Shown one piece after another: positions 29,109 through 62,508 of a stretch of 64,000 nt of DNA (position 1 is the stretch's first letter; each line of letters begins with the position of its first letter). The position numbers were made by a program, and so were the translations under genes. The notes under the pieces were generated by a model. It was not told where the DNA came from and did no database searches. It saw only the letters and a list, made by a program, of their open reading frames with translations. Source of the DNA: an uncultured Verrucomicrobiae bacterium (GTDB lineage: Bacteria > Verrucomicrobiota > Verrucomicrobiia > Chthoniobacterales > UBA10450). The stretch spans positions 32,001 to 96,000 of the forward strand of contig CAVYXA010000005.1 of the NCBI GenBank assembly GCA_963772365.1. Direction: 5' to 3'.

Positions 29109-30652
29109 GAACGGAAGAAGTCCATAGTCTGATCCTGGGCGCGGGGACTTCTGGTCTTGCCGCTGGACACGTCCTAGCAAAGGCCGGCCTTAATCCCGTG
29201 ATCCTGGAAAAAGATTCCGCGCCTGGCGGTTTATTTCGATCCATTCAGAGGGGCGACTTCGTCGTCGATATCGGCCGCAAGGAATTATACAATCGGATTG
29301 CCAAGGTTGATGCGTTCTGGAGCGAGCTTCTGGGAGGCGATTATCGCGACTATTCCCATCGCGGCGGGATCCTCTTCAACGGACATATCATCGACATGTC
29401 CCCGGCCTTTCGCGGATTTCGCCGCGGTATGCCATGGACCATGTTGCTTGGATGCGGTCTTGATTTTCTCTGGTCGCGCGCCAGACCGAGTAAACCTGCG
29501 CCGCGAAATCTCGAAACCTACTTTTACCAAAAACGTGGACGCCGTCTTACCCAGATCGCCGCGCAAGGTTTTCAGGAAAAACTGAATGGACACAAATGGT
29601 CGGAGATCGCCCTCGCGGAAAACTATAAGAACGGCGCCGACGCCAGTTTCTTTTCAACCGTCAGTGGCCTGGTCACACGCATCACTTCTCGAAGGGAAGT
29701 GAACACCTACAAAGGGATCTGGCGGCATCCCGCCAAAGGCACTGGCCAAATTTGCGAGAAACTAGCGGAACATATCCTTAAGCTGGGAGGAGTGATTCAC
29801 TACAAGGCGCAAGTCACGGCAATGGCCTGCGTTTCTGATGACGGACGGCAGAGGGCAGAGGACAGAGGACAGAGGACAGATGTCAGAACTCAGTCGTCAA
29901 TCGTCAGTCATCAGTCATCCGGTCAGCGCATTGACACAGTTACCGCGCAGATCGGTGAGGAAACGATCTGTTTCAAGCCATCGCACGTTGTCTCCAGCAT
30001 CCCCCCCGGATTGCTCAAGCGTTTTTTGTACACAGGTGCGGCGTCTCCGTCATCAGCCATCGGTCCTCAGTCGTCTGCTGCGAGTGCGCCAAAGCGCACT
30101 GTGATCCTCGTCTATTTGTTCCTGAACGAGGAACCACGTTTCCCACACGCCTGGCTCCAGGTAACTTGTCCGAGCACACAAATTGGCCGGATCACCAATT
30201 ACGCTGCGTTCAGTCGCGACATGGTCCCACAGGGCAAAACCTGCCTTTGCTGCGAGCTGTATTGCTTCGGGCCGGACGAACTCCTCGAAATGAACGACCA
30301 GGCAATTGTCGATCTTACACTTTCCGACTGCGCGAAGTCGGGCCTGCTGGATCGGGCAAAATGCTTTGATCATCTGGTTTTGCGGCTTCCGGGCGCAGAC
30401 GCATCGCAAAACCGGGACAACTGGATGAGCCCGGAGCGGATGAAGCTCCTGTCTGAGCTGGAGCAGTTCAAAAATCTGTACTACGTCAATCGCACCGAGA
30501 CAGACATTGCCACCTTGGCCGGGTTGGAAGCCGCCGAATCGATTGTGTCGGGTGACCGGACACATTTCGATCGGCGGGTCGATCCCGCCGAACTGGGGAT
30601 CAGGAGCGAATCCAAAGCCTTCGAATTCCAACTCCCCGTCGTGTCCGAGTGA
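29105..30652 (+). CDS. FAD-dependent oxidoreductase (protoporphyrinogen oxidase/UGM-like) with in-frame repeat inserts
   Basis: ILGAGTSGLAAG...LEKD..PGG Rossmann motif. Confidence 0.8.
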   Translation: MRTEEVHSLILGAGTSGLAAGHVLAKAGLNPVILEKDSAPGGLFRSIQRGDFVVDIGRKELYNRIAKVDAFWSELLGGDYRDYSHRGGILFNGHIIDMSPAFRGFRRGMPWTMLLGCGLDFLWSRARPSKPAPRNLETYFYQKRGRRLTQIAAQGFQEKLNGHKWSEIALAENYKNGADASFFSTVSGLVTRITSRREVNTYKGIWRHPAKGTGQICEKLAEHILKLGGVIHYKAQVTAMACVSDDGRQRAEDRGQRTDVRTQSSIVSHQSSGQRIDTVTAQIGEETICFKPSHVVSSIPPGLLKRFLYTGAASPSSAIGPQSSAASAPKRTVILVYLFLNEEPRFPHAWLQVTCPSTQIGRITNYAAFSRDMVPQGKTCLCCELYCFGPDELLEMNDQAIVDLTLSDCAKSGLLDRAKCFDHLVLRLPGADASQNRDNWMSPERMKLLSELEQFKNLYYVNRTETDIATLAGLEAAESIVSGDRTHFDRRVDPAELGIRSESKAFEFQLPVVSE

Positions 30653-30744
30653 TCCGTCCTCCGTCCTCTGACTTCTGACTTGTGTCGTGTGTCGCCCATC
30701 CGTCCTCTGAACACTGACCTCTGACATCTGATCTCTGAAATAGA

Positions 30745-35451: not shown

Positions 35452-36588
35452 ATGAGACCGGAGCGCATCATTTCGCCAGACGACCGGATTCTGGTGACTG
35501 GATCGAGCGGCTTTATTGGAACAAGGGTTGTCCGGATTCTGCTCGAATATGGGTTCACCAGAGTTCGCTGCTTCGTTCGTCCCTCCAGCCATCTCGGCCG
35601 GCTCAAAAAGGTTCTCAGCGAATTCGATCTCGGAGAGAATGTTGAGATTGTTACCGGCGATCTTCTTTCCGCTGAAGATTGCCGGAAGGCGACAGAAGGA
35701 GTGTCGCTGATTTATCATCTGGCGGTTGGGATCGAGAAATCATTCGCCGGCGCGTTCATGAATTCGGTCTTGACCACTCGAAACCTGATTGAGGCGCTCC
35801 TTGAGGTTGGCAAACCGAAGAGATTCATAAACGTCAGCTCATTCGCAGTTTATTCGAACCTGCTCTTAAACCACGGAAGCGTGTTGGATGAAACCTGTGA
35901 ATTGGAGGATGCCTCGCAGGATCGCTTTGACGCCTACGGATTCGGAAAGCTGAAACAGGAGCAGTTAGTCAAAGAGTACGGAACAAAGTGTAATCTACCC
36001 TATGTCATTGTTCGTCCGGGTTACGTTTTCGGACCCGGCAAAAAAGAACTCAGCGGCCGGGTCGGTATCAAAACATTTGGGCCGTTCATCCAGGTAAACG
36101 GTTCCCATAGGTTGCCGATTACCTACGTGGACAACTGCGCTGAGGCGATCGTCCTCGCGGGTCTCAAACCGGGCATCGACGGCGAAGTCTTCAACGTGGT
36201 GGATGATGAGCTTGTGACTGCCCGGAAATTTTTGAGAGCATGCAAACGAGTGAAACGCTTTCGTTCGGTCCGCGTTCCTTATTGGGTTGGGTACAGCGGA
36301 TGTTTCCTTTGGGAAAAATATTCCCGATGGTCCAAAGGCCAGCTTCCTCCGGTTTTTAATCGACGGCGATGTGTCGCCGAATGGAGGAGCCAACGGTACT
36401 CCAATCAAAAGCTAAAGGACCGTGTCGGGTGGAAGCCGCGCGTGCCAATGAAGGAAGCGATGGCGCGTTTTCTGAGTCAGTTCGAGTCAGAAAACGCGCA
36501 GAGGTCAGATATCAGAGATCAGAGGTCGGGAATCGGATATCAGTCGACAGATGTCAGACTTCAGCAGCAGAACGGCAATGCAGATTAA
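35452..36588 (+). CDS. NAD-dependent epimerase/dehydratase
   Basis: LVTGSSGFIG, YGFGK (YxxxK), RPGYVFGPG; repeat-derived C-terminal tail. Confidence 0.9.
   Translation: MRPERIISPDDRILVTGSSGFIGTRVVRILLEYGFTRVRCFVRPSSHLGRLKKVLSEFDLGENVEIVTGDLLSAEDCRKATEGVSLIYHLAVGIEKSFAGAFMNSVLTTRNLIEALLEVGKPKRFINVSSFAVYSNLLLNHGSVLDETCELEDASQDRFDAYGFGKLKQEQLVKEYGTKCNLPYVIVRPGYVFGPGKKELSGRVGIKTFGPFIQVNGSHRLPITYVDNCAEAIVLAGLKPGIDGEVFNVVDDELVTARKFLRACKRVKRFRSVRVPYWVGYSGCFLWEKYSRWSKGQLPPVFNRRRCVAEWRSQRYSNQKLKDRVGWKPRVPMKEAMARFLSQFESENAQRSDIRDQRSGIGYQSTDVRLQQQNGNAD
36498..36567 (+). repeat. Heptamer array, left arm (TCAGANN x10)
   Basis: gcagagg tcagata tcagaga tcagagg tcgggaa tcggata tcagtcg acagatg tcagact tcagcag. 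Confidence 0.9.
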
Positions 36589-36967
36589 GTCAGCGAAGGA
36601 TCTAATTGTTTATCAGAAAGCGTACACGCTGGCGATGGAGATCTTTCACGTAAGCAAAAGCTTTCCTGCCGAAGAGAAGTATTCGCTCACGGATCAGATC
36701 CGCCGTTCCTCTCGGTCGGTTTGTACCAACATTCGAGAGGCATGGGCCAAGCGAAGATACGAGGCGCATTTTGTAAGCAAACTATCGGACTCCGATGGTG
36801 AAAACGCCGAGACGGATACCTGGCTGGATTTTGCGCGCGATTGTGGATACCTCCCGACACCTGATCACACCCTTTTGATAGACAAATGCAGTGAAGTTGG
36901 AGCGATGCTTGGCAGCATGATGAGCAATCCTTCGTCGTTTATCATCCGCTCGGCTTCTGACGCCTGA
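36578..36967 (+). CDS. Four helix bundle protein (23S rRNA IVP / bAvd-like family)
   Basis: DLIVYQKAY, FPAEEKYSLTDQIRRSSRSVCTNIREAW, ETDTWLDFA. Confidence 0.92.
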   Translation: MQIKSAKDLIVYQKAYTLAMEIFHVSKSFPAEEKYSLTDQIRRSSRSVCTNIREAWAKRRYEAHFVSKLSDSDGENAETDTWLDFARDCGYLPTPDHTLLIDKCSEVGAMLGSMMSNPSSFIIRSASDA

Positions 36968-37004
36968 CCTCTGACTTCTGATCTCTGATTTCTGACATCT
37001 GAGG
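36956..37004 (+). repeat. Heptamer array, right arm (TCTGAYN x7), inverted relative to the left arm
   Basis: tctgacg cctgacc tctgact tctgatc tctgatt tctgaca tctgagg. Confidence 0.9.
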
Positions 37005-37007
37005 ACA

Positions 37008-38214
37008 ATGCTACGCATTGCCATAATCGGTTGCGGCAAGATTGCCGATGACCACGTGCAGGCTATCCAGAGGATTTCGGATTGCGAAATCGTGGCTGTC
37101 TGCGATCGGGAACCGCTCATGGCGAAACAGCTTGGCGAACGCTTTGGTGTGCCGGAATGCTTTACCGATTTGAAAGAGATGCTTCGAGTGACAAAACCCG
37201 ACGTTGTTCACATTACTACGCCGCCGCAAAGCCATTACTCTATTGGCAAACAATGTTTGGAAGCGGGAAGTCATGTTTATCTCGAAAAACCGTTCACGAT
37301 CACAGCTGATTCAGCTGAATCTTTAATCCAACTAAGCGAAAAACTGCGCAGGAAAGTAACGGTCGGGCACAACGGGCAGTTTACGCTCGAGATGATGGAG
37401 ATGCGCCGACTAGTCAACCGAGGATTTTTAGGCGGGGAGCCAGTTCATTTGGAAAGTTACTTTTATTATGACCTCGGTGATGGCAGCTCTACGACCTCGC
37501 TGTTATCTAATCCGGAGCATTGGGTGCATCAATTGCCTGGCCGACTACTTCACAATGTTATTAGCCACGGAATTGCCAAGATTGCTGAGTTTCTCGACGA
37601 CGAAATTGTCGAAACAATAGCCATAGCCAATAAGAGCCCGCGGATTCAAGCAGTTACTGGAGCGGAAATGCTTGATGAATTGCGCGTTCTGATTCGGGAC
37701 AAGCGTGAAACGACGGCGCTATTCTCTTTCTCGACGCAGATCAAAGGGCTCAACCAGTTGCGTCTTTATGGATCGACTGGATCTATCAGCGTAGATCATT
37801 TCGCCGGAAGCGTGGTTCGAAGTACAGAATCGATCGTATAAGAGCTACCTGACCTATGTTATTCCGCCGCTCCTTGCCGCGCGCGAACATCTCAGAAACG
37901 CGTGCATCAACATGATCAATTTTGGCCGAAGAAGGCTCTACCAGGATTTCGGAATGAAAGAGTTGATTGAGCGATTCTATAACAGTATCCGATCGAACGG
38001 CCCGCCGCCAATTCCCTATCGCGAGATTCTGCTCACCGCGCGGATCATGGATTGTATCTTCCGCCAAATCTACCCCAACCGGACGACGGAAGACGGACGA
38101 CAGACGACGGAAAATGGGGAGCAAGACGGAGTACGGACGGTCGACGACCGAGTACGGACGACAGCGGACGGAGATCGGAAAGAGGTCCTCGGTCATCCGT
38201 CATCAGCCATCTGA
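37008..38214 (+). CDS. Gfo/Idh/MocA oxidoreductase, frameshift near 37830
   Basis: IIGCGKIA, GSHVYLEKP; continuation FYNSIRSNGPPPIPY in another frame, ending in a repeat-derived tail. Confidence 0.8.
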
Positions 38215-38272
38215 TTGCTCCGGCTGATCGCTGATCGCTGACTTCTGACCTCTGATTTCTGAAACAAGCACC

Positions 38273-39232
38273 ATGCGCTACGTGTTGATTACTCCCGCGC
38301 ACAATGAGGCGCGTTTTATTACTAAAACGCTCGACTCAATGGCTGCGCAGACCCTCTTGCCCGAGCGCTGGATCATCGTCGATGATGGTTCAACGGACAG
38401 GACCGCGGAGATCGTCGGGACTTACGTACGGCGTTATCCTTGGATAGAGTTGATTCGGCGTCACCAACGCAAGGACCGAAACTTTGCCGGCAAAGTCCAT
38501 GCTTTCAACGCCGGATATTCGTCACTTGTCACTCATCACCCATCACTCTCCTTCGACGTCGTCGGGAATCTGGATGGCGACCTTTCTTTTCCGCCGGATT
38601 ATCTGGAGTTCCTGATACAAAAATTCGCCGAAGATTTCAGACTCGGTGTGGCTGGCACTCCGTTCACAGAGGATGGCGGTTACGACACCGCCAGGGATAG
38701 CTTTGAAGGAGAAAATTATGTCGCCGGTGGTTGCCAGTTATTCCGGCGCGCATGTTTCGAGGAGATCGGCGGCTACGTCCCCAATGCCGCCGGTGGTTTG
38801 GATTGGATCGCAGTCACCATGGCGCGGATGAAAGGATGGAAGGTGCGCTCCTTTTCGGAAAAACGATTTCATCATTACCGAACGCTGGGGACAGCGCAGC
38901 GGAATCAGTTCTCTGCTCTATTCTCCTACGGGGAAAGGGCTTATTACCTCGGCTGGTCGCCGATCTGGCAATTCGTTCGCTGCGTTTATCGCATGACTAG
39001 AAAACCGATCTTCTTCGGTGGCCTGGCCCTGCTCTCTGGTTACTGCTGGGCTGCTGTAAAGCGAACCAAACGCCCGGTGTCATCGGAAATCATTCGCTTC
39101 CATCGCCGCGAACAAATACGAAGACTTCGCGGCATTCTCGGACGCGTGTTGCGACTCAAAAAGATCGACAATTTTCGTTTAGAGCGTTCGGCTTCCGTCT
39201 CCGATCTTCCATCTTCGATCTCCGGTCGTTAA
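38273..39232 (+). CDS. Glycosyltransferase family 2
   Basis: ITPAHNEA, IIVDDGSTDRT, LDGD. Confidence 0.92.
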   Translation: MRYVLITPAHNEARFITKTLDSMAAQTLLPERWIIVDDGSTDRTAEIVGTYVRRYPWIELIRRHQRKDRNFAGKVHAFNAGYSSLVTHHPSLSFDVVGNLDGDLSFPPDYLEFLIQKFAEDFRLGVAGTPFTEDGGYDTARDSFEGENYVAGGCQLFRRACFEEIGGYVPNAAGGLDWIAVTMARMKGWKVRSFSEKRFHHYRTLGTAQRNQFSALFSYGERAYYLGWSPIWQFVRCVYRMTRKPIFFGGLALLSGYCWAAVKRTKRPVSSEIIRFHRREQIRRLRGILGRVLRLKKIDNFRLERSASVSDLPSSISGR

Positions 39233-39234
39233 GA

Positions 39235-40712
39235 ATGCAGTCATCCGTCGTCAATCATCGGTCGTCTGGAGACAAAGTCTCTCGCGTCCTAAGAAACTTC
39301 GTCAATTGGCTCGATAACTACGGCGACACTTCTTGGGATCACCAAAGTTTTTTTGCGGGACCGACGGGACGCATGGCAAAATCATTGTATTATCGACATC
39401 GATTCATCGGAACTGCGGCAGTCGCTCCGATGATTTTGTGTGAAGCCATCCTGCCCTCGGCAAGGCGACTGTTCCATCATCCAATCCGGTTCCCGATCTC
39501 CGATGCGCATTACGCGATGGCTTTGCCTTTCTTTATGAAACGACTGGAGAGCTTCATTGCCTCACGAAAGCAATTCACTTTTTAGATGAACTAAAAAAGT
39601 CGCGCAGTCCTGATTTCGAAGATTACTGCTGGGGTTATCCATTCGATTGGGTCACGCGCAAAGGAACAATTAAGGCACACACACCGCTGATCACGACAAC
39701 GCCGTACTGCTATGAGGCGTTTTTGCAAGTAGCGAAGCTGCTTGGTCAGAGATCAGAGATCAGAGATCAGAGATCAGATCGTGAATCTGAGGAATCAGCG
39801 TCTTCTGACTTCCGACCGCTGACATCTGGCCTCTGTGCGATGGACATCGCCGAGTCCATCGCGCGGCACGCAGCCAATGACATCAAAGACTTTCCAACGT
39901 CGGCAGCGGGCAGCAGTTGTTCTTACACGCCTTATGATGAAGGCGGAGTCATTAACGCTGCGGCGTATCGTGCTTTCCTGCTGACGAGCGCATCACAGGT
40001 TTTTTCCAATGACGATTACTGGAAGATCGGTGAGCGAAATCTGAATTTCGTTCTGGAGAACCAAAACCCCGATGGTTCCTGGTTTTATGCCGTCGATGGC
40101 GTGCGCAATTTTGTCGATCATTATCACACATGCTTTGTCATGAAGGCGCTGGCCAAGATTCACGATCTGACCGGGCATGAAGCGACTTTTACGGCACTCG
40201 AAAAGGGCGTTCAGTATTACCTCGAAAATCTGTTTGCGGAGGATGGAATGCCGAAGCCTTTTGCCAAGGCGCCGCGGCTGACCGTTTACAAACGGGAGCT
40301 CTACGACTGTGCCGAGTGCATCAATCTCTGCCTGTTGTTGCGCGACCGGTTCCCCGAGCTGGACACCACGCTGGAAACCGTCGTTCACGGAATGCTGAGC
40401 GACTGGATCAAGCCCGACGGCTCGTTCCGCTCGCGCCGGTTGCATCTTGGCTGGGACAACGTCCCGATGCATCGCTGGGGGCAGTCGCAGATGTTTCGCG
40501 CGCTCGCGCTCTATTTGCGCGAAACATCTGCGCAAGAGGACAGAAGTCAGAGGACAGGAGTCAGAGGTCAGATGTCAGCGGTCAGCGGTTCGCAGGGCGC
40601 GAACTATACGGCGGGAGGTCGTGAGAATCGATCTAGGGAAGCCGGCGACTCGGTTTTGGTGAAGACCGAGAGGTCAGAAATCGGTCGCAGCCGTCGGCCA
40701 TCAGTCGTCTGA
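39235..40712 (+). CDS. EPS-locus alpha/alpha-barrel-like protein, frameshift near 39525
   Basis: Frames join via CWGYPFDW...TPLITTT; QNPDGSWFY, FVDHYHTCF, MHRWGQSQM. Confidence 0.6.
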
Positions 40713-40717
40713 GTTAG

Positions 40718-42500
40718 ATGCGCGTCATGAAGATCTTGTACGCTAATCAGGTGTCGGAAAACGTAAAGCGTCTGAGCGCGCTGGCGGAGTGCCTTGGAAT
40801 CGAGACGGAACTCATAAACATTGGAGGAAATGGATCGTTCCTGACGCTGTTTGGGAATGGCTCACAAAAAAGAGGGATCGCTTTGGATGTAGCGAGCCTG
40901 AAGCACCGCACGAGTGGCGACGAACTGCGAAAGACGCTCGTTTCCGGTAGCGTGGCCAGTCTGCTCATTCTTGTGACGGACAACGACGAAGCAACCAATC
41001 GCTTCATCCGAGATCTAACGGCCGGAGAAATATCCGGTGTCGATCCGCAACGTTCGGTTGGAAAAGTATCATTCCCAGCATCTGGACAAGCGCTAAACCA
41101 TGATTTGTCTTCGCAGATATATCCGAGACAAAGTAAGGATGCGATTACGTTGAGGATTGCGCCTCCTTCAACTGCCGAGGTTGTAATGGAACTGAACGGT
41201 GCGGCCGGCTTTGCGCATTTCCGCCATGGTCGCGCCGAGTTTTTTATTTGGAGCACGACAGAAGTATTCGACATGAATCGCCGACTAGCAGCCGAGCTGG
41301 AGTTTGAACTCGCTTCCGATGAATATATTCCGGGTATCATCTTTCTCAGATCTGCATTCGGACAGCGGTGCTGGCATAACCCCGTTTCCGGCGCGGGAAT
41401 CGTCATCGACGATCCGTTGCTCAAGGAAAATTACGGCTTTATCGACTTTCGAAAACTTTTGGAGTCTGCCCGGAAACATCAATATCACGTCACCCTGGCT
41501 TTTATTCCCTGGAACTATTGGCGTAGCCGTCGCAAGACAACCCAGTTATTTCGGGATTATTCAGATTGCTTCGATATTTGTGCTCATGGGTGCGATCACA
41601 CTGACAGCGAATTCAGACACGGAAGTTACGACGAACTGCTGAGCCGAAATTTCATCGCCAGCAACCGAATGGCTACGCACGCTCTGCGCACCGGCATGGA
41701 GTCGGCAGCCCCTCATGGTATGTCCGAAGGAGCAATATTCGACCAAAGCGATGCAGGCTTTTGCCGATAGCAGGCAATTCATTGCGCTGATTTGCACTGC
41801 CTGCATGCCGCGCGACTTGGATCGGCCCGCACTAACAGGTTCCGATCTACTCCTTCCAGCGCAGGATTCCTTCTCAGGGTTCCCGGTTTTCAAGCGGCAT
41901 TACTCGAATGGGATGCAGACAGGTGTTTTCGCGATGGCGTTGTTCCTAGGGAAGCCAGCAATTCTGGTCGAGCATCATCAGTTTTTCCGCGGGGGACCGG
42001 CCGGTGCGGAGGAGTTCGCCAGACTGATCCGTGAGATGCAGCCGGGGTTGCGATGGAGGTCGCTTCAACAAACGGTGATGCGCACACATGCCCGACGCCA
42101 AATTTCCCATGACCGGTGGGCGATCCGATTTTTTACCGATCAGTTTCTTTTGGAACCGGTTCCGGAAAGCGGAATTCAATACGAGTTTATTCGAAGAGTT
42201 CCGGAGCCGACGCGTGTCGAATGCGTGCGTGTGGCAGGCAAGGAGATTCCATTCCGCAAACGGGATGGATTCCTCACATTCGAAACGGAATTGCGAGAGC
42301 CGGAGACCGTCCTTGTCGAGGTTAAAGTCACTCCCGCCAGACCAAGCAAATCGGCCTCAAACGGCGTCAAGCACCATACTCGGGTGGCACTTCGGCGCGG
42401 TCTGTGCGAAATGAGGGATAATCTGGTCGCGCGAAATCGATTTGCCGTTAACGCGGGTCGACGTCTGATGAAGACTTTCGGGCAGAAAGCGCGTCAATGA
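40718..42500 (+). CDS. Polysaccharide deacetylase-like protein, frameshift near 41710
   Basis: IVIDDP, LAFIPWN, ICAHGCDH; second ORF continues MVCPKE...LVEHH. Confidence 0.6.
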
Positions 42501-42623
42501 TCAGAGGTCTGAGGCCAGCGGTCAGAAATCACAGATTCGCCGCGGCGAATCCATCTATTGGCGGATCAGAAGTCAGATCACGTTGTAACGTTGTAACCAT
42601 TTAACGATTCACTTTCGCGAAGC

Positions 42624-44514
42624 ATGTGCGGCATAACAGGCCAGTTTAACTTTATCCGGCGCGAACCGGTCGAACCGGACACGATCCGGCGCATGACTGC
42701 GACGATCGTTCACCGCGGACCGGACGATGAAGGGTATTACATTGCCGGGGGCATCGGGCTGGGCGTTCGCCGATTGTCTATCATCGATATTGCGGGCGGG
42801 CATCAGCCGATGTCCGACGCGGAAGAGACTGTCTGGGTCGCGTTCAATGGTGAGATTTACAATTTCAAAGAACTTCGCATCGAACTCGAACAGCATGGTC
42901 ACCAATTCCGCACCAAGTCCGATACGGAGGTGATCATTCACGGTTATAAACAATGGGGAACGGAGATCTTGAATCATCTCAATGGGATGTTCGGACTCGC
43001 CATTTGGGACGTGAAAAAACAGAGACTCGTCGTGGCGCGCGATGCCATGGGCATCAAGCTAATCTATTATAGGATCGACAATGGACGGCTGACCTTTGGG
43101 TCCGAAATCCGGCCGCTTCTTGCCGCAGACGATTCCAAGCCGGATGTCGATCCGGTCGCGCTGAATCTCTTTCTTCGTTTTCGTTATACGCCATCGCCGT
43201 TAACCATTTACCAGGGCATTCGAAAACTCGCGCCCGGCACGATGCTGGTTTGCGAAGATGGCAAGTGTGAAGAGAAACGCTGGTATAACTTTGTCCGAAC
43301 TCCGTTTCCGGAACACAAGGGCGAACAAGAAAGACGCGAAGAACTGCTGGAGTTGTATCGCGCGGCGGTCCGGCGACATTTGTTGAGCGATGTCCCAGTT
43401 GGGATTCTTCTCAGCGGTGGGCTCGACTCGGGATTGCTCCTGGCGCTGATGAACGAGCAGGGCGGTCCCTGGCCGGCTTATACGATCGGCTACGGCGAAA
43501 CATTCGATGACGACGAGCTGGTCGATGCAGCCGAAACGGCGAGGGCATTGGGTGCGCGGCATGTCACGGTAAAACTCGATCGAGGCGAGTTTGAAAGATC
43601 GCTGCCTAAAATCGTGGAATGCCTCGAGGAACCGATTGCTGCTTCTTCCATTGTGCCGATGTATTTTATCTGTGAGCGGGCACGACAGGATGTAAAGGTC
43701 GCCTTGATCGGCCAGGGACCCGACGAACTATTCGGCGGCTACAAACGTCACCTCGGTGTGTCACTATGGCGATTGGTGGCGGCTTCTACCGAAGAGTGTC
43801 CGGTCCGCTTTTGGGTATGCGGTAAACGGGCTGCCCCGCAACGAGACTCTCAAACGCGGCGTCGCTTCGCTGGGGACAAACGATCGGTTGAAACGATACC
43901 AGGATGTATTCGCGCTGGCGCCGGCCGAGACGATCGACGGTTTGTTTCAGGATGGCCTATTTCGAAATGGCCGCAGCCATGGTTTGGCCGATTACTGGAG
44001 CGACCTCGTACCCCAAATGGTCCATACCGATGAGCTGGGCGGATTTCAGCTGCTCGAGATCCGGTCGTCGCTTCCAGACGAGCTGCTCATGTATGCGGAC
44101 AAGCTATCAATGGCCCACAGCTTGGAGGCGCGTGTGCCGTATCTCGACCGGACCGTGGTGGAATACGTCCAGAGATTAAACGCCGATCTCAAGATTCGGA
44201 ACGGCAGCCGGAAATGGCTCCACCGGCAGGTCTGCGCGAAATATTTGCCGCGCCGGATTCTCAAGGGAAAGAAGCGTGGCTTCGCCGTAAACGTGGTGGA
44301 CGATTGGTTTCGCTCATCGCTGAATGGGAAATTCCAGGAATCGCTGCTCGACGAAGGTTCGCTCATGTTCGGCCTGCTCAAGTCCGGAGCGATACGGGAA
44401 CTGGTGAACGACCATCAATCCGGGCGTCAGGACAATCACAAGGTGCTGTTCAGCCTGGTGATGTTCGAGCAGTGGCTGCGCAGCAAAACATCACTTGCTG
44501 GCAAAAATCAGTAG
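42624..44514 (+). CDS. asnB: Asparagine synthase-like amidotransferase (glutamine-hydrolysing), frameshift near 43765
   Basis: MCGITG, HRGPD, FNGEIYN, LSGGLDS, GPDELFGGY, DKLSMAHSLEARVPYLD. Confidence 0.9.
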
Positions 44515-44519
44515 GACGG

Positions 44520-45557
44520 ATGAAATCTGCAATCAACAAGGCGTTTCTTTTTGCTTCCTATGGTTTCCCGCGGGCAATCCTTGCGAGGACCATTCATTTC
44601 CCCTTACTGGCACCGTTTTATCATCTGGTTAGTGATGATCACCCGCCACACATTAAGTATTTATTTCGTTATCGGACGATTGCCGAATTCAAAAGGGACA
44701 TAGAGTTTTTCTTACAAGATTACCACCCGATCAGTCTTGATGAAATCCTTCTACACATTAGAACGGGAAAAGCTCTGTCCCGAAAAAGCTTCTTTCTCTC
44801 TTTCGACGATGGACTACGCGAGATTCACGAAGTAATTGCACCGATTCTGAAGGAAAAAGGAATTCCGGCGACTTTCTTCGTGACAACCGCAACGCTCGAC
44901 AACGCCGACATGATCTACAGGCACAAAGCGAGCCTGATCGTTGATCAACTGATGAGAGTACAACAACAAAACATCGCAGAAGTGAAAAGAGTCCTGGGGA
45001 AAAGAGGAATCTACAATGACGATCTTGCGGCTGCAGTCCTTGGCGTAAAGTACAGGGACCGTGAAGTGCTCGATGACGTAGCACAATGCATCGAATTAGA
45101 CCTTAGAGAATACCTGGCTCGACGACGGCCCTACGCAAGCACTGGCGAAATCAAAAAGTTGATCTCAGAAGGGTTTACCATTGGTGCACACAGCGTTGAT
45201 CACCCGTTTTATCCAGAATTGCCCGTTGATGATCAATTGCGACAGACCAACGAAAGTCTCGAGATTGTCACCCGGCTATTTGGGCTTTCCTACAGAGCTT
45301 TCGCTTTTCCCTTCGGGGATAATGGAGTTCCAAAGCGATTTTTTAATCAAGTCCTGGCAGAAAACGCAGCCGATGTCCTGTTCGGTAGCAGCAGCTCATT
45401 TTGGAACGACGAATATTATCCGTTCGCTGTTCAGAGGCTCGGTATGGAGAGCGGATTTCATAGAGCGGCGGATAATCTGCGCGTCGCTGAGATCAAGTTC
45501 GGACTAAGAGTGATGATTGGCAGGTCGAACGTTAGAAGATCGAGTGGTAGAAATTAA
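44520..45557 (+). CDS. Polysaccharide deacetylase
   Basis: YHLV, LSFDDG, PATFFV, IGAHSVDHP, FAFPFG. Confidence 0.9.
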   Translation: MKSAINKAFLFASYGFPRAILARTIHFPLLAPFYHLVSDDHPPHIKYLFRYRTIAEFKRDIEFFLQDYHPISLDEILLHIRTGKALSRKSFFLSFDDGLREIHEVIAPILKEKGIPATFFVTTATLDNADMIYRHKASLIVDQLMRVQQQNIAEVKRVLGKRGIYNDDLAAAVLGVKYRDREVLDDVAQCIELDLREYLARRRPYASTGEIKKLISEGFTIGAHSVDHPFYPELPVDDQLRQTNESLEIVTRLFGLSYRAFAFPFGDNGVPKRFFNQVLAENAADVLFGSSSSFWNDEYYPFAVQRLGMESGFHRAADNLRVAEIKFGLRVMIGRSNVRRSSGRN

Positions 45558-46653
45558 GCAATACACACTGGCCGATTTGAGCGAGCTGGTGCACTCGAAC
45601 AGTTTTTGGAATGGAGATTTGATTCCAATTACAAAGCATCGCGCATTGTCCCAAGTCAAAAACCCACGCGCCCACCCGGAAGACGTTGTTTTGCTTGTCG
45701 CCCGAGACGGGGACACAATTTGTGGATTTACCGGTGTGTTGCCTGACCTCATTTTCTTGCCGGAAGAAACGCTCAGAGTAGGATGGCTTACGGCATGGTG
45801 GAGGAAACCCGGTTCACGATATGCAGGGATAGGGTCGAAGCTTCTGATGAGGGCGTTAGAGCTTTATCAGGGAGCAATTTGCGTGGAACCGCCTTCAGAG
45901 TCTGCCAGGAAGGTCCTGGAGAGGTCAGGACAATTCGTAACCCTGCAGGAGAACACGGAGGTGCGAGCGATCATAAGAGTGAATACGCGCTCTATTCTTT
46001 CTCGAAAGATTCCTGCATTGAAGAAATTCGGATTGTTTCTTGGACTGCCCGATAGTCTGGCGAACATTTTTTGCCGAGCGAGATTGCGATTTTGGACGGC
46101 GCGGCATGGAATCTCCGGAGCGCTGCGGGTCGAGTATATTACTGCAGTCGACCCTGAAACAGCCGATTTCGTAAACAAGCTCCGGGACCATGATTTGCAC
46201 AGAATGGGTGCGCCCGAGTTAAACTGGATTGCCCAGAGTCCGTGGATTTTAACGGCGCCTTTGAAGGAGGGAACGGTAAAGAACTACTATTTTTCAGCGA
46301 CCGCTAAAGAATCACTTTGTTTGATGATAAAGATTCTCGAATCTAAGGGCTCTCTGATTGGTTTTGCGATCCTGACGTTAATCAATGGGCACTTAAGAGT
46401 CCCATACTGTTACATGCAGCCCGAGCATGCCGATGAAGTATTTCGAGTCATCGGCGAACATGCGGTCGCCCTGCGAGCCGAAAGTCTCACCCTTGGTCGA
46501 TCGGAATTAAAAGCGAGTATGCGTCGCCTGAGGTTTCCATGTCTCCTAAGGAGCCAGAGGCTGCGCCGGTGGACGATTGGGAATCTGTACGCTGGCAAGG
46601 TCACACGCTGTGCTCAAATTCAGGATGGAGCCGGAGACTGCGCATTTTTTTAG
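45517..46653 (+). CDS. GNAT-like protein
   Basis: LVARDGDTICGF, GIGSKLL acyl-CoA-binding-like motif; ends DGAGDCAF. Confidence 0.55.
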   Translation: MAGRTLEDRVVEIKQYTLADLSELVHSNSFWNGDLIPITKHRALSQVKNPRAHPEDVVLLVARDGDTICGFTGVLPDLIFLPEETLRVGWLTAWWRKPGSRYAGIGSKLLMRALELYQGAICVEPPSESARKVLERSGQFVTLQENTEVRAIIRVNTRSILSRKIPALKKFGLFLGLPDSLANIFCRARLRFWTARHGISGALRVEYITAVDPETADFVNKLRDHDLHRMGAPELNWIAQSPWILTAPLKEGTVKNYYFSATAKESLCLMIKILESKGSLIGFAILTLINGHLRVPYCYMQPEHADEVFRVIGEHAVALRAESLTLGRSELKASMRRLRFPCLLRSQRLRRWTIGNLYAGKVTRCAQIQDGAGDCAFF

Positions 46654-46753
46654 AGTTCTGAAACCGGCTTTCGGCGGGTTAGCGGAGCCAGCGGATCTGT
46701 GTTGGAAACGGTCGGAAGCACTGAATAATAAGCCGTAGGGCTTTTGTGAATCG

Positions 46754-47755
46754 GTGAGTGACGTGTCTAATAACTCTGCAAATGTCAGAATTTTTGAGGA
46801 GACAATCCGCTTCAGGGGCGTCCCTGTGCGGCGAACCGCTGTGTTGGTTGATCATCAAACATTCATCATTTCGGGAAAGTTTCTGAGAACGGCAAGCTTG
46901 AAAAGAGAGTGGCAGGAGGATGTGAGCGACCCGAGAACGGTCATTCAAGCACTAACGAGTGACCTTGCGAGACCCGATCTGCTGAAGTTCTGGCAGAGGG
47001 TTCCCGACATTGCTGCCAAGTTTGGCTACTACAAGGAATGGCGGCAAATTGCCGCGATCCCGATCACCAGTTACAAGCAATGGTTTGAAAAACAAATCAG
47101 TCCCAAGGCGCGAAACAAAATTCGAAAGTCGCAGAAACTTGGGGTCGTTGTCAGACAGGTCGATCTTAATGACGACTTTGTTAGCGGCGTCATGGCAATC
47201 TACAACCAATCTCCGATCCGGCGCGGGAAGCCGTTCTGGCATTACGGAAAAGATTTCGAGACGGTAAAGAGCGAATTATCGGCTGATTTGGACAGCTCTG
47301 TTCTTATCGGTGCCTATTACAAGGAAGAGCTAATCGGTTTCATTAAGTTTATGATCACCGACAGATACGCGATGACGCTGTTGATTCTGGATAAGATATC
47401 GCATCGCGACAAAGCGCCAATGAACGCGATGATCGCAAAGATCGTGGAGATTTGCGCCGACGAGAAGATTCCATATTTCACCTATACAGTGTGGCGGCGG
47501 GGCGAGCATGGTCAGTTTCAAGAAAGTGTTGGATTCAAAAAAATCCCAGTGCCCGAATACTTCGTTCCTTTGACAGCAAAGGGGAAATTAGCTTTGTGGC
47601 TCGGGTTACATAAAGGACTCAAGGGAGCGCTCCCAGAAAAAATAATGGTTTGGCTGTTAACAATGAGAGCGAAATGGTACGCAATGAAGTATTCTAAAAA
47701 ACACCGTACCCGATTGAACGCTGGGCACAAATCCATGGCGGTATCCTCGACCTAG
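46754..47755 (+). CDS. FemAB-like GNAT-fold protein
   Basis: ISPKARNKIRKSQKLGVVV matches the Fem-family R..IRK..K.GV helix; LIGAYYKEELIGF; PMNAMIAKIVE. Confidence 0.6.
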   Translation: MSDVSNNSANVRIFEETIRFRGVPVRRTAVLVDHQTFIISGKFLRTASLKREWQEDVSDPRTVIQALTSDLARPDLLKFWQRVPDIAAKFGYYKEWRQIAAIPITSYKQWFEKQISPKARNKIRKSQKLGVVVRQVDLNDDFVSGVMAIYNQSPIRRGKPFWHYGKDFETVKSELSADLDSSVLIGAYYKEELIGFIKFMITDRYAMTLLILDKISHRDKAPMNAMIAKIVEICADEKIPYFTYTVWRRGEHGQFQESVGFKKIPVPEYFVPLTAKGKLALWLGLHKGLKGALPEKIMVWLLTMRAKWYAMKYSKKHRTRLNAGHKSMAVSST

Positions 47756-47808
47756 CCTCGTTTTCGGTTCCTCGTGATTTAGCGCGTACGGACTACGTAC
47801 TGAAACTG

Positions 47809-48810
47809 ATGAAAAGCCCAATATTTATTGTGGGGCCGCACCGAAGCGGGAGCACGCTTTGGCATAATCTCATTGCGATGTGTCCAGGCGTCATGAGATT
47901 GGGCGATCCGCGGTTTCTCGCGCGGCGGGGACAACTCGATTTCAGATTCTTTCTTAACACACAGGCTCGTAACCTGGCGACGATCGAAGAGAGCGAAACT
48001 CTGGTCGAGCTCTGTTTCTCGAAAAAGCGCATCCCAGGTCTGGAAGGCGCTTTCTGGAGATTTGAAGGCATTCCCGCGGTGGACGATCCCGAATTGCGAA
48101 AGGAAGTTGCTCGCCGGATTTTTGAATCGGATCGGAGCTCGGGAACGATCGCGCGGATTTTGATTGAAGAGATCACGAGGTTTAGCGGATGTGAGCGGGC
48201 CTGCATCAAGTTTCCTGTCGATGTTGCGCATATCTCGGAGCTGATGGAATGGTTTCCGGAGGGGAAGGTTGTTCATATCACGCGGGATCCCCGAGCCTTG
48301 GCGATGTCGAAGAGCAACGATCCGTCCGGAACGGCGATTAAACTGGTGAAACATCCGCGGTTTGCCTGGCTGATAAGAAAGGCGAGCATCTGGGCGACAA
48401 TTGTTCAGTATCGCCTCAGTGCGCAAGTGCATCAGCAGTTTCAGGGGCGAACGAATTACCAGTTGTTTCGATATGAAGATTTATTGGCCGATCCGGAACA
48501 GATTTTGCGTGAGCTTTGCGAATTCATCGACACCGATTTTCAGGAAGAGATGCTTGAACCGCAAATGGGCCGCCATGAACATCAGCCGTCGAGCCTGACT
48601 GGCAAACGGCAGAAAGCGTTCGACCCAGCCGCAGCGGACCGATGGAGAAATGTGATTCCGCGAATAGATTACTGGCTGATCACCTGCTTTACGCACGGCA
48701 GCATGAAAACATTGGGATACGGAGACAGACGTCAGAAGTCACAAGTCAGAAATCAGCACTCGAAACACGACAATAGCTCGGACGTAGTTGAGTATTTCGC
48801 TGACCGCTGA
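47809..48810 (+). CDS. Sulfotransferase
   Basis: PIFIVGPHRSGSTL, ITRDPRA, RYEDLLADPE. Confidence 0.9.
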   Translation: MKSPIFIVGPHRSGSTLWHNLIAMCPGVMRLGDPRFLARRGQLDFRFFLNTQARNLATIEESETLVELCFSKKRIPGLEGAFWRFEGIPAVDDPELRKEVARRIFESDRSSGTIARILIEEITRFSGCERACIKFPVDVAHISELMEWFPEGKVVHITRDPRALAMSKSNDPSGTAIKLVKHPRFAWLIRKASIWATIVQYRLSAQVHQQFQGRTNYQLFRYEDLLADPEQILRELCEFIDTDFQEEMLEPQMGRHEHQPSSLTGKRQKAFDPAAADRWRNVIPRIDYWLITCFTHGSMKTLGYGDRRQKSQVRNQHSKHDNSSDVVEYFADR

Positions 48811-48872
48811 CCACTGATCGCTGTCTTCTGTCCTCCGTCGTCGGTCCTCTGTTTTGTTTTGGAATCTAATTT

Positions 48873-48963
48873 GGAGAGGTGGCTGAGTGGTTTAAGGCAG
48901 CAGCTCGAAAGAGCTGCTATACGGCAGCGGCCGTATCGGAGGTTCGAATCCTTCCCCTCTCCG
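48873..48963 (+). tRNA. Non-canonical tRNA-Ser-like gene lacking a normal anticodon loop
   Basis: GGAGAGG acceptor, GAGTGG D-loop, GCAGCTC-GAAA-GAGCTGC hairpin, long variable arm ATACGG/CCGTAT, GGAGG-TTCGAAT-CCTTC, G discriminator; CCA not encoded. Confidence 0.9.
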
Positions 48964-49089
48964 CTCTTCCAAAACTGAAATACTGAAAACTGAAACGCTG
49001 AAAATTCCAGCATGTCCGCCTTTCCCGCTTTTGTGTTCTCTGACTTCAGTTTTTCCTTTTATCAGAGTTTCAGATTTTTAGCGTAACTT

Positions 49090-55258: not shown

Positions 55259-56251
55259 ATGAATATCTTGATCCTTAAACGGGGCGCGACGGGCGACGTG
55301 GTAAGGACGACGCCATTACTGGCCCGGCTAGAAGGAAATTTCACCTGGATCACGGAAGCGAATAATGCCGTTCTGCTTAAAGGACTGGGGAAACATCTGC
55401 GTTGTTTCGCTTGGGAAGATCGGGAAAAAGCGCTGGATAGATCCTACGATCTGGCAATCAACCTCGAGGATACTGTCGATGTAGCTCAATTTCTGAAACA
55501 GCTAAAATGCAGCGATCTCTTTGGCGCTTACCTTGGCCCCAACAACTCCTTGCGATACACCAAAAATTCGCAGTGTTGGTTCGATCTCAGCATCATCAGT
55601 ACTCTGGGAAAGCTGAAAGCTGACAAGCTGAAATTCGGAAATCGAAAGACGTATCAACAGTTGATTTTTAAGGGTATTGGCTTCGAGTTTGCCGGCGAAA
55701 CCTATTTGCTGCCGGATGCCATTGAGACCGGTCTGACTGGCGATATAGCTATCGCCGCGGAAGCCGGGATGGTGTGGCCGATGAAGAAGTGGGCGCATTA
55801 TCTCGAACTGAAACGAGCTTTGGAAGCGGAGGGTTTTAGGGTGAATGTGTTGCCGAAGAGAGGATCTCTTCTGGAACATTTGGCCGATGTCCGCAATCAT
55901 CAATGCCTCGTTAGCGGTGACAGTCTCCCGATGCATTTCGCGCTCGGGACAGGAACCCGCTGCGTAACGTTGTTCACCTGCACGAGCCCATGGGAGATCT
56001 ACGATTACGGTGTTCAGGCAAAAATCGTTTCACCTTTGCTGGAAGAATTCTTTTATAAGCGCGGCTATGACGAGCGGGCGACGACATCGATCAGCGTTGA
56101 TCAAGTGTTCGAGGCCGTGATGCAGCAACTGGCAGCTTCAAAGGTCAGATCCGCCAAAGGACGGATTCGCCGTGGCGAAGGTCAGAAATCAGAAGTCAGC
56201 GCGATTGAAAGCGCGGAGCGCGATGCTGCTCGTGACAAGGCAATAGTATGA
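55259..56251 (+). CDS. Glycosyltransferase family 9-like
   Basis: GATGDVVRTTP, WPMKKW, VSGDSLPMHFA. Confidence 0.85.
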   Translation: MNILILKRGATGDVVRTTPLLARLEGNFTWITEANNAVLLKGLGKHLRCFAWEDREKALDRSYDLAINLEDTVDVAQFLKQLKCSDLFGAYLGPNNSLRYTKNSQCWFDLSIISTLGKLKADKLKFGNRKTYQQLIFKGIGFEFAGETYLLPDAIETGLTGDIAIAAEAGMVWPMKKWAHYLELKRALEAEGFRVNVLPKRGSLLEHLADVRNHQCLVSGDSLPMHFALGTGTRCVTLFTCTSPWEIYDYGVQAKIVSPLLEEFFYKRGYDERATTSISVDQVFEAVMQQLAASKVRSAKGRIRRGEGQKSEVSAIESAERDAARDKAIV

Positions 56252-57561
56252 TTGTCTCGGAGATTAGCGATCAGAAGTTCGCCCCGGCGAATCCGTCCAC
56301 GGGCGGATCAGATATCGCGGTCGACTGTTCCGCCCGCGGTCCTCAGTCCTCCGTCCTCAGTCATCCGACTCTGCATGTCGCTTTGCTGAGCGGTGGCGGA
56401 GACAAGCCTTACGCGCTGGGGATGGCCGAAGGGCTAACCTCAGCCGATGTGTTTGTTGATCTTGTTGGCAGTAATGATCACTCGGCGCCAGGACTGTTGG
56501 GCATTCCTCGTTTGAACTTTCTTAATCTCCGAGGTGATCAGTCGACGGAGGCAAACTGGTTGGCAAAGATTTCGAGAGTATCGAAATATTATATTCGACT
56601 GATTCGGTACGCTGCGACGGCAGAACCCAAAGTGTTTCACATCTTGTGGAACAACAAGTTTGAATTTTTCGATCGGACGCTCTTGTTGATCTATTACAAA
56701 TTGCTGGGCAAGAAGATCGTTTTTACGGCCCATAATGTAAACGCAGGCAAACGCGATTTGAATGATTCGTGGCTTAACAGATTGTCGCTGCGAATTCACT
56801 ATCGCCTGTGCGATCACATTTTCGTTCACACCGACAGTATGAAACGGGAACTCACGATGGATTTCGGAGTCCCGCAACGCAAGGTGAGCGTCATCCCGTT
56901 TGGAATTAACAACACGGTTCCGAACACAAACTTATCAAGAGGAGAGGCAAGACAACATCTTGGCCTGACAGATGGCGATCGGGCGCTGTTGTTCTTCGGC
57001 AACATCGCGCCTTACAAGGGGCTGGAATATCTGATCGCGGCATTCACAAAACTCTCAGAGAGGGACACTAGTTACCGATTGATTGTCGCGGGAAGACTCA
57101 AAGGGGACGAGAGTTACCGGCACCGCATTCAGCGAGTGCTGAAAAATTGTGGTGTGCGCGACCGAATCGTTGAACGGATGGAATACGTGCCCGATGAGGA
57201 GACAGAATTGTATTTCAAAGCGGCCGACGTCCTAATTCTGCCCTACACCCGCGTATTTCAGAGTGGCGTGCTCTTTTTGGGATATAGTTTTGGTCTTCCC
57301 GCGATTGTCGCCGACGTGGGCGAACTGAGACAAGACATCATCGAAGGCGAGACGGGATTTGTATTTGAACCGCGGAACTCATCCGACCTCATGGCCAGGA
57401 TCGACAGGTACTTTAGGAGCGACTTATTTCACGATGCGGAAAAGACACGATCAAGGATCAAGGCCTACGCCAACAAGCGCTACGCGTGGAGCAAAGTTGC
57501 CGCAATCACCAAGGAAGTTTACACGAATCTTTTGCAGTCGAGACCTGGCGCGCTGGCTTAA
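56248..57561 (+). CDS. Glycosyltransferase family 4
   Basis: LFFGNIAPYKGL, ADVLILPY, QSGV, GETGFVF; repeat-derived N-terminal extension. Confidence 0.9.
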   Translation: MIVSEISDQKFAPANPSTGGSDIAVDCSARGPQSSVLSHPTLHVALLSGGGDKPYALGMAEGLTSADVFVDLVGSNDHSAPGLLGIPRLNFLNLRGDQSTEANWLAKISRVSKYYIRLIRYAATAEPKVFHILWNNKFEFFDRTLLLIYYKLLGKKIVFTAHNVNAGKRDLNDSWLNRLSLRIHYRLCDHIFVHTDSMKRELTMDFGVPQRKVSVIPFGINNTVPNTNLSRGEARQHLGLTDGDRALLFFGNIAPYKGLEYLIAAFTKLSERDTSYRLIVAGRLKGDESYRHRIQRVLKNCGVRDRIVERMEYVPDEETELYFKAADVLILPYTRVFQSGVLFLGYSFGLPAIVADVGELRQDIIEGETGFVFEPRNSSDLMARIDRYFRSDLFHDAEKTRSRIKAYANKRYAWSKVAAITKEVYTNLLQSRPGALA

Positions 57562-62406: not shown

Positions 62407-62508
62407 CGGTGGGCGAAAGATGGCGAGATTACAGAGGACCGAGGATAGATGACGGCACAGCGAGACTACAGTCCGGCGTCGGAAAGGCGAAGGATCGAAA
62501 AAGCTCCC

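Follow-up and report, generated by a model that had tools for sequence, protein, structure and literature searches.

What are the purine-rich and pyrimidine-rich arrays of seven-nucleotide units that recur at gene ends, and in places inside genes, along the polysaccharide cluster of an uncultured Verrucomicrobiae bacterium? The window analyzed here is the whole 64,000-nucleotide (nt) stretch of contig CAVYXA010000005.1 from position 32,001 to 96,000 (G000:C5:32001-96000 in our numbering, where G000 is the host genome and C5 the contig); the genome assembly comprises 3.35 Mb in 6 contigs, with 55% G+C, and is 90% complete. Approximately 44 open reading frames (ORFs), all on the + strand and separated by short gaps, extend over 13021-62406 as a co-directional polysaccharide/exosortase cluster, the "~47-kb operon" of an earlier note made from the sequence alone. 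Its products, as identified with Pfam, include sugar transferases, aminotransferases, Wzz/Wzy-type proteins, sulfotransferases, asparagine-synthase-like enzymes, a flippase, and an exosortase, and the cluster is a mosaic locus. The earlier note described four pairs in which a purine-rich array (R) is followed by a pyrimidine-rich array (Y) with no cargo in between, namely P1 (38080-38262), P2 (39746-39838), P3 (40538-40710), and P4 (48725-48854), together with several solo arms, and took them for footprints of one element or for transcript hairpins. This observation is real but was over-read. With a probability of about 0.55, the stretches are gene-less or one-armed members of a family of heptamer-armed cassettes that carry a four-helix-bundle (4HB) gene, most likely either relics of the cassette resident in the operon, which are tolerated, or alternative sites for it.

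A period of seven underlies these stretches. Lags of 3 to 12 were compared in 18 of them (the four pairs, their arms, and six solo arms), and lag 7 scored best at 18/18, with a shuffle p of ≤0.003 at 15. The weak cases were 40650-40710 (0.39, p=0.015), ~42500 (0.35, p=0.032), and 62385-62460 (0.45, p=0.007), so that the solo purine arms reported at the latter two places keep seven as their best lag but are only faintly periodic. Period-7 arrays at the same places were also listed independently by Tandem Repeats Finder (TRF). At a lenient threshold (at least 11 of 14 lag-7 matches; control, 20 triplet shuffles), the window contains 27 arrays compared to a shuffle mean of 1.25 (maximum, 4), which bears out the claimed period. 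The density of arrays is 422 per Mb in the window, compared to 69 per Mb in the remaining genome. Genome-wide, the lenient threshold returned 252 arrays for lag 7 and 104-156 for the control lags 5, 8, and 10, and part of this genome-wide count is therefore noise; a stricter threshold left 124 arrays of period 7, 22 of them inside the window, against 39, 18, 2, and 0 for periods 5, 8, 10, and 11.

The units themselves lead to a particular gene. The arms that flank a PF05635 ("23S rRNA intervening-sequence protein") gene at 36551-36967 consist of the same R/Y words as the arrays (CAGAGGT/TCTGACC and GACGGAC/GTCCGTC), and the full form of the family would be a small PF05635 4HB gene between such arms, with one full copy in the operon at 36499-37002. 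The arms of this resident cassette have a complementarity (best local score) of 43, reached by 0 of 500 shuffles. Period-7 chains with a CTGA/TCAG core number 22 in the genome, 14 of them within the window and another 3 close to it on contig C5; 17 of the 22 fall within the 87 kb around the resident cassette (C5:16-103 kb). In all, the genome contains 12 PF05635 genes, nearly all between inverted tandem-repeat arms whose word varies by locus (GTGACGA, GGGATTC, GGGATGA, GATCATG, and others). When the empty sites were compared to these 12 cassettes (blastn and tblastx), the arms of the window's own cassette were the sole similarity. As P1 to P4 hold no PF05635 ORF, they are filed here as cargo-less derivatives and not as cassettes. 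Their description as pairs without cargo is accurate as far as a PF05635 ORF or its remnants are concerned, but in P3 the bases at 40587-40690 belong to a dispersed structured repeat.

The order of the arms is equally regular within the window, and the statement that it is never reversed was upheld. Six close pairs, the resident cassette included, run R then Y (29840/29889, 36499/36957, 38079/38183, 39742/39795, 48724/48796, and 56179/56334; the Y arm at 39795 is below the lenient array threshold and is visible by eye and in the lag test), and the window's array table contains no Y-then-R pair within 500 nt. Polarity is thus fixed in the window; elsewhere, it is a strong bias and no rule. Genome-wide, the sense strand is C-rich in 20, G-rich in 9, and neutral in 4 of the arrays that lie no more than 50 nt ahead of a called start; downstream of stops, no strand bias was resolved (22 versus 25). 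A census of the class covered 41 PF05635 loci, 12 in this genome and 29 from 29 related genomes. Arms scoring at least 28 were found in 34/41, of which 29 are G-first, 3 C-first, and 2 neutral; without two unpublished loci (one of them L037, C-first, from genome G014), the figures are 33/39 and 29, 2, and 2. Because an inverted repeat is identical on both strands, the G-first order belongs to the element itself and is no effect of the coding strand; the G- or purine-first arrangement characterizes the cassette class as a whole and not this operon.

Two PF05635 cassettes of the same contig (G000:C5:226852-227160 and 229395-229703) lie in an apparent gap-pgk-tpiA region, one of them between gap and pgk. 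The arms of one cassette are of the GATCATG type; the second, of the GAAGAGG type, has its pyrimidine-rich arm first and is an exception to the order.

To place the arrays among relatives, two orthologous junctions were compared; the named relatives fetched were chiefly Verrucomicrobiae, Chthoniobacterales, and Udaeobacter metagenome-assembled genomes (MAGs). The first junction is that of P3, after the gene at 39537-40712. Among 80 related loci, 75 were anchored at the C terminus of this gene, and arrays were sought within 700 nt. Arrays are present in 25/75 loci and a full 4HB gene in 9/75 (tblastn; 6 Pfam-confirmed), two loci contain partial gene remnants (51 and 67 residues), and a third contains a weak 32-residue match; where both arms are present, R precedes Y (6/6 loci). 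Compared to the window's 36551 gene, five of the 4HB genes at this junction are 73-80% identical and a sixth is 52% identical, whereas all six are ~30% identical to the other paralogues. The arms and the other arrays of these loci use the same words as the window. Thus, one cassette lineage lies after this gene in the relatives and 3.6 kb upstream here, where the junction itself has arrays without a 4HB gene. The second junction, between macA and macB, was compared in 27 genomes: it holds the full cassette, with GTGACGA arms, in 7, an empty heptamer pair in 2 (of the GGAGTGA and CGTGAAT types), and a plain gap of 13-66 nt in 14, and could not be anchored in 4; the unpublished genomes G008 (plain gap) and G003 (unanchored) are included, and their omission changes nothing. 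The proposal that the pairs are footprints of the same element accordingly gains from the shared words, from the orthologous cassette at the P3 junction, and from the series of gap, empty pair, and full cassette between macA and macB; its direction, namely loss of cargo, does not follow, with no remnant inside the window's own sites. A genome of the same genus is of no help at these junctions: DNA-level similarity over 15.6 kb of the cluster is confined to the arrays, and the orthologous junctions are therefore not comparable there. Six 20-kb stretches of that genome held 6 same-word chains in one 80-kb region and 0 in the other.

The gene order beyond P3 varies as well. In the window, two ORFs of unknown family (40718-42500), with arrays on both sides, separate the P3 junction from an asparagine-synthase-like gene. 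In most of the loci L081-L160, the asparagine-synthase-like gene (asnB; MCGI... start) comes next after the homologue of 39537-40712, with either nothing or the cassette in between, and an apparently similar extra ORF precedes that gene in L114 and L152. Four loci from MAGs labelled Acidobacteria, Terriglobales, Methylomirabilota, and Alphaproteobacteria (L083, L084, L089, and L127) have a near-identical cluster architecture with the same words and the orthologous 4HB gene, which would reflect either cross-phylum transfer or binning errors.

Arrays also occur inside coding DNA. P2 lies in frame within ORF 39537-40712 (a gene with a frame break near 39530 in the assembly), and the coding frame contains no stop across it; the assignment of the pairs to gene junctions therefore fails for P2, while the other pairs do lie at gene ends. 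The P2 site carries a hypervariable insert in all 19 aligned homologues (67-78% identity), with repeat-encoded peptides such as SEIRDQRSD... and DLRPLTSDLC. Of 52 loci anchored at the DNA level, 35 show the 45-nt base loop and the remaining 17 contain inserts; all lengths are multiples of 3, and all 52 homologues are in frame, one of them with two in-frame stops. A second in-frame stretch of R plus Y is found at 29837-29922; distant homologues (~30% identical) align at residues 8-248 and 290-464, skipping it.

Such arrays could in principle act as phase-variation switches, in which the gain or loss of one 7-base unit would shift the frame of a surface-polysaccharide gene. The setting agrees with this, as the cluster is a surface-polysaccharide one, two arrays (29837-29922 and 39742-39838) are inside coding frames, a 7-nt unit does shift the frame, and a heptamer case is documented for hmw1A in the available text of PMC12721329. 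However, most arrays lie in 3' tails or spacers, where a shift would have little effect, the loop site is in frame in 52/52 homologues, and the frame breaks of the assembly (~39530; 37841/37912; 28677) are away from the arrays; we consider switches of this kind very improbable. The frame breaks and stops of the cluster (37841/37912, 28677/28674, ~39530, and 44033/44214) split a Gfo/Idh/MocA gene, a sulfotransferase, the 39235-40712 gene, and an asparagine-synthase-like gene, with a heptamer array at none of them; they may be assembly indels or real pseudogenes.

The arrays, in the reading we prefer, would be relics of, or alternative sites for, one cassette lineage that has probably spread and been reshuffled inside the cluster. 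In the relatives, the same cassette with the same words occupies other cluster junctions, that of P3 included. Descent of the arrays from the cassette is the probable link between them, and near-neutrality would account for their survival, arrays persisting where they do little harm. Several observations weigh against this reading. No 4HB gene or remnant was found inside P1 to P4 (ORFs, blastn, tblastx, and tblastn), so that cargo loss at the window's own empty sites is not demonstrated; the macA-macB tree is poorly resolved, and the order of gain and loss cannot be read from it. Other words in the genome are without an obvious cognate cassette, for example, GTTTGAT (9 arrays) and TTTCGAT (7), and in a crude census of the 80 related loci the polarity bias is weaker (R then Y, 12; Y then R, 5). 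Finally, the inserts at the P2 site consist of R only, Y only, or both, with differing words (CAGAGGA, CTCAACG, and CAACGCC), and since a whole cassette could hardly pass through a coding loop, arrays must also spread or arise without the gene. One arm alone can thus be viable, and arrays can spread or arise without a 4HB gene.

The last point recalls a different origin, in which the arrays are independent simple-sequence repeats, produced by in-place slippage of heptamers and unrelated to the cassette, and 4HB genes merely settle in them. The genome does contain many unrelated words, the word turns over at a single coding loop (the P2 site), heptamers are reported to be the most frequent class among long simple repeats of bacteria (Mrazek 2007, according to the summary in the available text of PMC4679880), and for the 70-75 convergent pairs of Xanthomonas the available part of PMC4692102 mentions no gene. 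Slippage alone would, however, generate one direct array, and neither an R array facing the complement of the same word nor the composite mirrored order of P4. Furthermore, the word family is found chiefly near its own cassette, and in relatives it accompanies both the cluster and the orthologous 4HB gene. An origin by slippage is therefore quite unlikely in our view.

A more far-reaching idea is that the word serves as an address. On this view, the product of the 36551 gene, a 4HB protein, would read CAGAGGT/TCTGACC, its own word, in RNA or in single-stranded DNA, the ~20 arrays of this word in the operon would be its putative working sites, and each PF05635 paralogue would read a different word. 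This is highly doubtful, as are, at similarly long odds, the roles that might go with it: cluster-private post-transcriptional control, or joints for the exchange of polysaccharide gene modules. Compatible with it are the concentration of the word near the cassette (17/22 chains), the joint travel of word, cluster, and orthologous 4HB gene in MAGs labelled as several phyla, the change of junction by the cassette between genomes, and the two extra genes between arrays here, where relatives go straight to asnB.

Whatever their origin, the arrays are placed with respect to stops and starts. The R arms of P1, P3, and P4 contain 0 stops in all three frames, and the Y arms of P1, P4, 19758, 27385, and 30651 contain stops in all three; upstream ORFs therefore read through R and end in Y, with repeat-encoded tails rich in D, G, R, Q, E, and T. 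A stop-free R arm would thereby be translated, giving the upstream protein a hydrophilic tail or loop, and the Y arm, which would offer TGA in all three frames (7 mod 3 = 1), would continue up to the next start codon in a genome with almost no Shine-Dalgarno (SD) signal. The distance from the end of a Y array to the ATG is 0-11 nt at seven starts (15143, 19795, 27454, 30745, 37008, 38273, and 39235); SD-like motifs accompany 14.5% of called starts compared to 12.3% in an in-gene control, with crude start calls. An all-frame stop in the Y arm was rejected as a general rule: TGA is in the G-rich arm for most other word families (GTGACGA, GTTGAGA, and GGGATGA) and in neither arm for GGGATTC.

This geometry, with an upstream ORF running through the R arm and stopping in the Y arm just before the next start, is that required for translational coupling, and it suits the view that the pairs are functional mRNA hairpins. 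Within the polycistronic transcript, R would base-pair with Y, and the resulting stem, if cleaved by RNase III or melted by the ribosome on the upstream gene, would set the stability of transcript segments or the coupling between genes. The genome encodes RNase III, and precedents exist in the (ATCTTTC)n hairpin of the hmw1A 5' untranslated region (UTR), cut by RNase III according to the available text of PMC12721329, and in the excision by RNase III of a Coxiella 23S rRNA intervening sequence with an S23p ORF, as described in the accessible part of PMC4990558. Folding gave a divided result: the minimum-energy structures of all four pairs are paired end to end, but their stems are 4-5-bp helices broken by 2-nt mismatches, and the sense-strand z against dinucleotide shuffles is only -1.1, -0.2, -1.8, and -1.6 for P1 to P4, with the antisense strand as good or better for P2 and P4. 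Complementarity within pairs (shuffles reaching it, of 500) is 21 (10) for P1, 19 (0) for P2, 14 (98) for P3, and 21 (6) for P4, which makes them poor inverted repeats compared to the gene-bearing pair (43, 0/500); the scores are significant for P2 and P4, marginal for P1, and nonsignificant for P3. Non-partner arms match better: the R arm of P2 scores 19 with its own partner and 46 with the right arm of the cassette, and that of P3 scores 14 with its own partner and 56 with the Y arm of P4. Among 34 cassette stems read on the sense strand of the cargo, 34 G-U and 30 A-C mismatches were counted, that is, no G-U excess, and solo arms as well as R-only or Y-only inserts occur. A scan of 29.6-49.5 kb found no promoter-like or terminator-like site at the arrays, with 6 promoter-like sites compared to 14.4 expected and 24 terminator-like sites compared to 23.0. 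On these grounds, the earlier suggestion of transcript hairpins that tune processing was not sustained. Because an RNase III gene is present and stem cleavage has experimental precedents, functional hairpins are kept at low odds, as an unlikely alternative, and any effect of the arrays on mRNA is putative.

The individual arrays are listed in the table. In P1, the six CTGAYNN units of the Y arm have no counterpart in the R arm, whereas the mirrored sub-unit order of the Y arm makes P4 a proper fold-back. The stretch at 30651-30737 had been taken for a solo arm, and this was not confirmed: the R array at 29840-29888, 764 nt away, is its partner (score 34; shuffle maximum 26; reached by 0/500 shuffles), although the sub-unit order is not mirrored. 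One R/Y pair was missing from the earlier note; its R array (56179-56199) forms the 3' end of ORF 55259-56251, and its Y array (56334-56367) forms the 5' part of ORF 56248-57561.

Table. Period-7 arrays, PF05635 genes, and associated repeats in the window (R, purine-rich; Y, pyrimidine-rich)
Feature	Start	End	Strand	Context and evidence
Solo Y array, 3 units	15122	15142	+	Reaches ATG 15143; array table, lag test
Solo Y array, CTGA at period 7 with gaps	19758	19791	+	Ends 5 nt before ATG 19795
Solo Y array, TCTGACY, ~6 units	27385	27452	+	Reaches ATG 27454; TRF, array table, lag test
R array (CAGAGGA-type), directly followed by Y array (GTCATCA-type)	29837	29922	+	In frame, amine-oxidase-like ORF 29105-30652; fold z -2.9
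Y arrays, TCCGTCC then TCTGACY	30648	30738	+	End 7 nt before ATG 30745; match R array at 29840
Resident cassette, left arm, R, CAGAGGT-type	36499	36550	+	Overlaps 3' end of epimerase-family ORF 35452-36588; TRF, array table
Resident cargo, PF05635/bAvd-like 4HB gene	36551	36967	+	Pfam 7.4e-34
Resident cassette, right arm, Y, TCTGACC-type	36950	37004	+	Ends 6 nt before ATG 37008; TRF, array table
P1 R arm, GGACGAC-type	38079	38180	+	C-terminal tail of ORF 37912-38214; 0 stops in three frames
P1 Y arm, GTCATCC-type units, then six CTGAYNN units	38183	38262	+	Stops in three frames; ends 11 nt before ATG 38273
Y array absent from the earlier note	39198	39227	+	3' end of GT2 gene 38273-39232, 8 nt before next ATG; TRF, array table
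P2 R arm, TCAGAGA x5	39742	39790	+	In frame, ORF 39537-40712; TRF (100% matches), translation, homologue alignment
P2 Y arm	39795	39838	+	In frame, ORF 39537-40712; only the coding frame is stop-free across the pair
P3 R arm, GTCAGAG-type, ~8 units	40535	40595	+	C-terminal tail of ORF 39537-40712
Dispersed ~95-nt three-hairpin repeat	40587	40690	+	Fills the "spacer" of P3; matches in 7/41 genomes
P3 short Y stretch CCATCAGTCGTCTGA	40690	40712	+	Gives stop codon 5 nt before ATG 40718; nonsignificant partner of R arm
Weakly periodic R stretches flanking a small palindrome	42501	42585	+	Between ORF 41715-42500 and asparagine-synthase-like gene 42624
P4 R arm	48722	48760	+	Within 3' end of sulfotransferase ORF 47809-48810; TRF, array table, lag test
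P4 Y arm, mirrored sub-unit order	48796	48854	+	Ends 19 nt before tRNA-like gene 48873
R array and Y array	56179	56367	+	Straddle overlapping stop/start; array table
Second PF05635 gene with its own arms	58276	58852	+	Left, ACGAGACA-type period-8 array; right, GTCGTC-type array; TRF, Pfam
Purine-rich stretch, weakly periodic	62385	62460	+	Spans junction of exosortase gene and next ORF; below lenient array threshold

The structured repeat inside P3 (40587-40690) is one copy of a dispersed element of ~95 nt with three hairpins, which has up to 8 matches in a single genome. Of its 28 predicted base pairs, 7 remain able to pair although both partners have changed, and the middle stem shows compensatory changes. 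Two more copies are in the host genome (G000:C1:700158-700238 and G000:C3:669672-669760), and in one homologue (P0084) the element occupies the P2 loop site instead (78% identical over 41 residues). Of the copies at loci L168-L176, one directly follows a tRNA gene (L175), and others follow heptamer arrays. Rfam gave no meaningful match at 40480-40780 and no family at gathering score in the window.

Other repeats and structured sequences accompany the arrays. The spacer before the solo Y arm at 27385 contains another dispersed repeat of ~50-85 nt (27265-27415), with 8 further partial copies on C1 and C5 (76-86% identity) and a separate 27-nt match on C3. Downstream of P4, a tRNA-like gene (48873-48964) lies inside the cluster; ARAGORN assigns it a four-base "anticodon" (gaaa), its anticodon arm can be represented by an 8-bp stem capped by a GAAA tetraloop, and its best Rfam model is tRNA-Sec (37.3 bits, under the gathering score of 47). 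Directly after it comes a further fold-back (48971-49085; fold z -2.4, + strand), in which AAAACTGA-type units of period 8 are combined with their complement.

Two other mechanisms were dropped. A reading of the arrays as attC-type integron cassettes was abandoned as no integrase domain, and hence no tyrosine-recombinase integrase, was detected by the Pfam scan among the 56 window ORFs; production of the repeats by a resident reverse transcriptase was abandoned with 0 PF00078 matches in the 90%-complete genome. A search of metagenome contigs for strain variation, with one exact 26-mer taken from the beginning of the GT2 gene, gave 0 matches.

We know of no accepted explanation for the excess and strand placement of bacterial heptamers, and to our knowledge PF05635 proteins have had no known function since their discovery inside rRNA intervening sequences. 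The junction series is now concrete, with no repeat, one arm, empty pair, partial gene, and full cassette, and one cassette lineage with one word is found at different junctions of one cluster in different genomes; these findings tie solo and empty arrays to cassettes and provide comparable natural variants. The translation of arrays as protein tails and loops matters for the annotation of gene ends in Verrucomicrobiota MAGs. If the arrays were indeed recognised by a protein, they would represent a new kind of operon-private control or shuffling signal.

Among known systems, Rickettsia palindromic elements (RPE) are hairpin-forming repeats that are dispersed in the genome and occur in frame in coding genes, at permissive sites. 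The P2 insert is like them in its absence from 35/52 homologues, its lengths divisible by 3, and its open coding frame (in a gene with a frame break near 39530), but the window inserts are tandem 7-mers of variable number and word, and a single arm is possible. Leptospira is another source of ORF-bearing intervening sequences of 23S rRNA. The resident cassette resembles the Coxiella burnetii example, in which, according to the accessible part of PMC4990558, a PF05635/S23p-type ORF is enclosed by a long stem. In contrast to these intervening sequences, the window sites lie between or inside protein genes and not in rRNA, and empty arrays without an ORF occur.

The solo Y arms are reminiscent of the direct repeats of TAACTGA that precede start codons in Beggiatoaceae, cyanobacteria, and Bacteroidetes (MacGregor 2015; available text of PMC4679880), which are likewise heptamer direct repeats ending a few nucleotides before a start codon, in genomes that, like this one, have few canonical ribosome-binding sites. 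TAACTGA contains CTGA and thus provides TGA in all three frames, as the window words do. The window unit is, however, YCTGAYY, with only the CTGA core in common, and many window arrays face a complementary R array and are linked to a cassette gene; the same text records one indirect repeat among 170 TAACTGA sets. The hmw1A 5'-UTR hairpin of Haemophilus influenzae also combines a heptamer array with a complementary purine-rich arm, and it is transcribed. It differs in being a single locus with the pyrimidine-rich repeat as the left arm, that is, in the opposite order, and its RNase III cleavage and phase variation were shown by experiment (all according to the available text of PMC12721329).

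A close likeness is to the heptamers of Xanthomonas (GGGAATC) and Nostoc (GGGGAYT), for which a G-rich-first polarity and a placement by stops and starts have already been described (Rehm et al. 2015; available part of PMC4692102). As in the window, these are tandem 7-nt units, mostly between co-directional ORFs, and the 70-75 convergent pairs per genome, G-rich on the plus and then on the minus strand, have the R-then-Y order seen here. The window arrays show the placement described in that study, with the G-rich strand after a stop and the C-rich strand before a start of co-directional ORFs. A G-quadruplex reading was rejected for the window words: the units TCAGAGG and GACGGAC have neither GGG runs nor G3-4 tracts, and that reading is therefore not transferable from Xanthomonas and Nostoc. 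A further difference, as far as the available part of PMC4692102 goes, is that the window arrays are tied to a PF05635 cassette and that some are translated in frame; no title or abstract linking PF05635 to heptamer arms was found among the papers that the literature searches listed. Order and placement thus repeat a pattern already in print for other phyla, and the link to a cassette, the series of states at orthologous junctions, and the in-frame copies go beyond what the literature search turned up.

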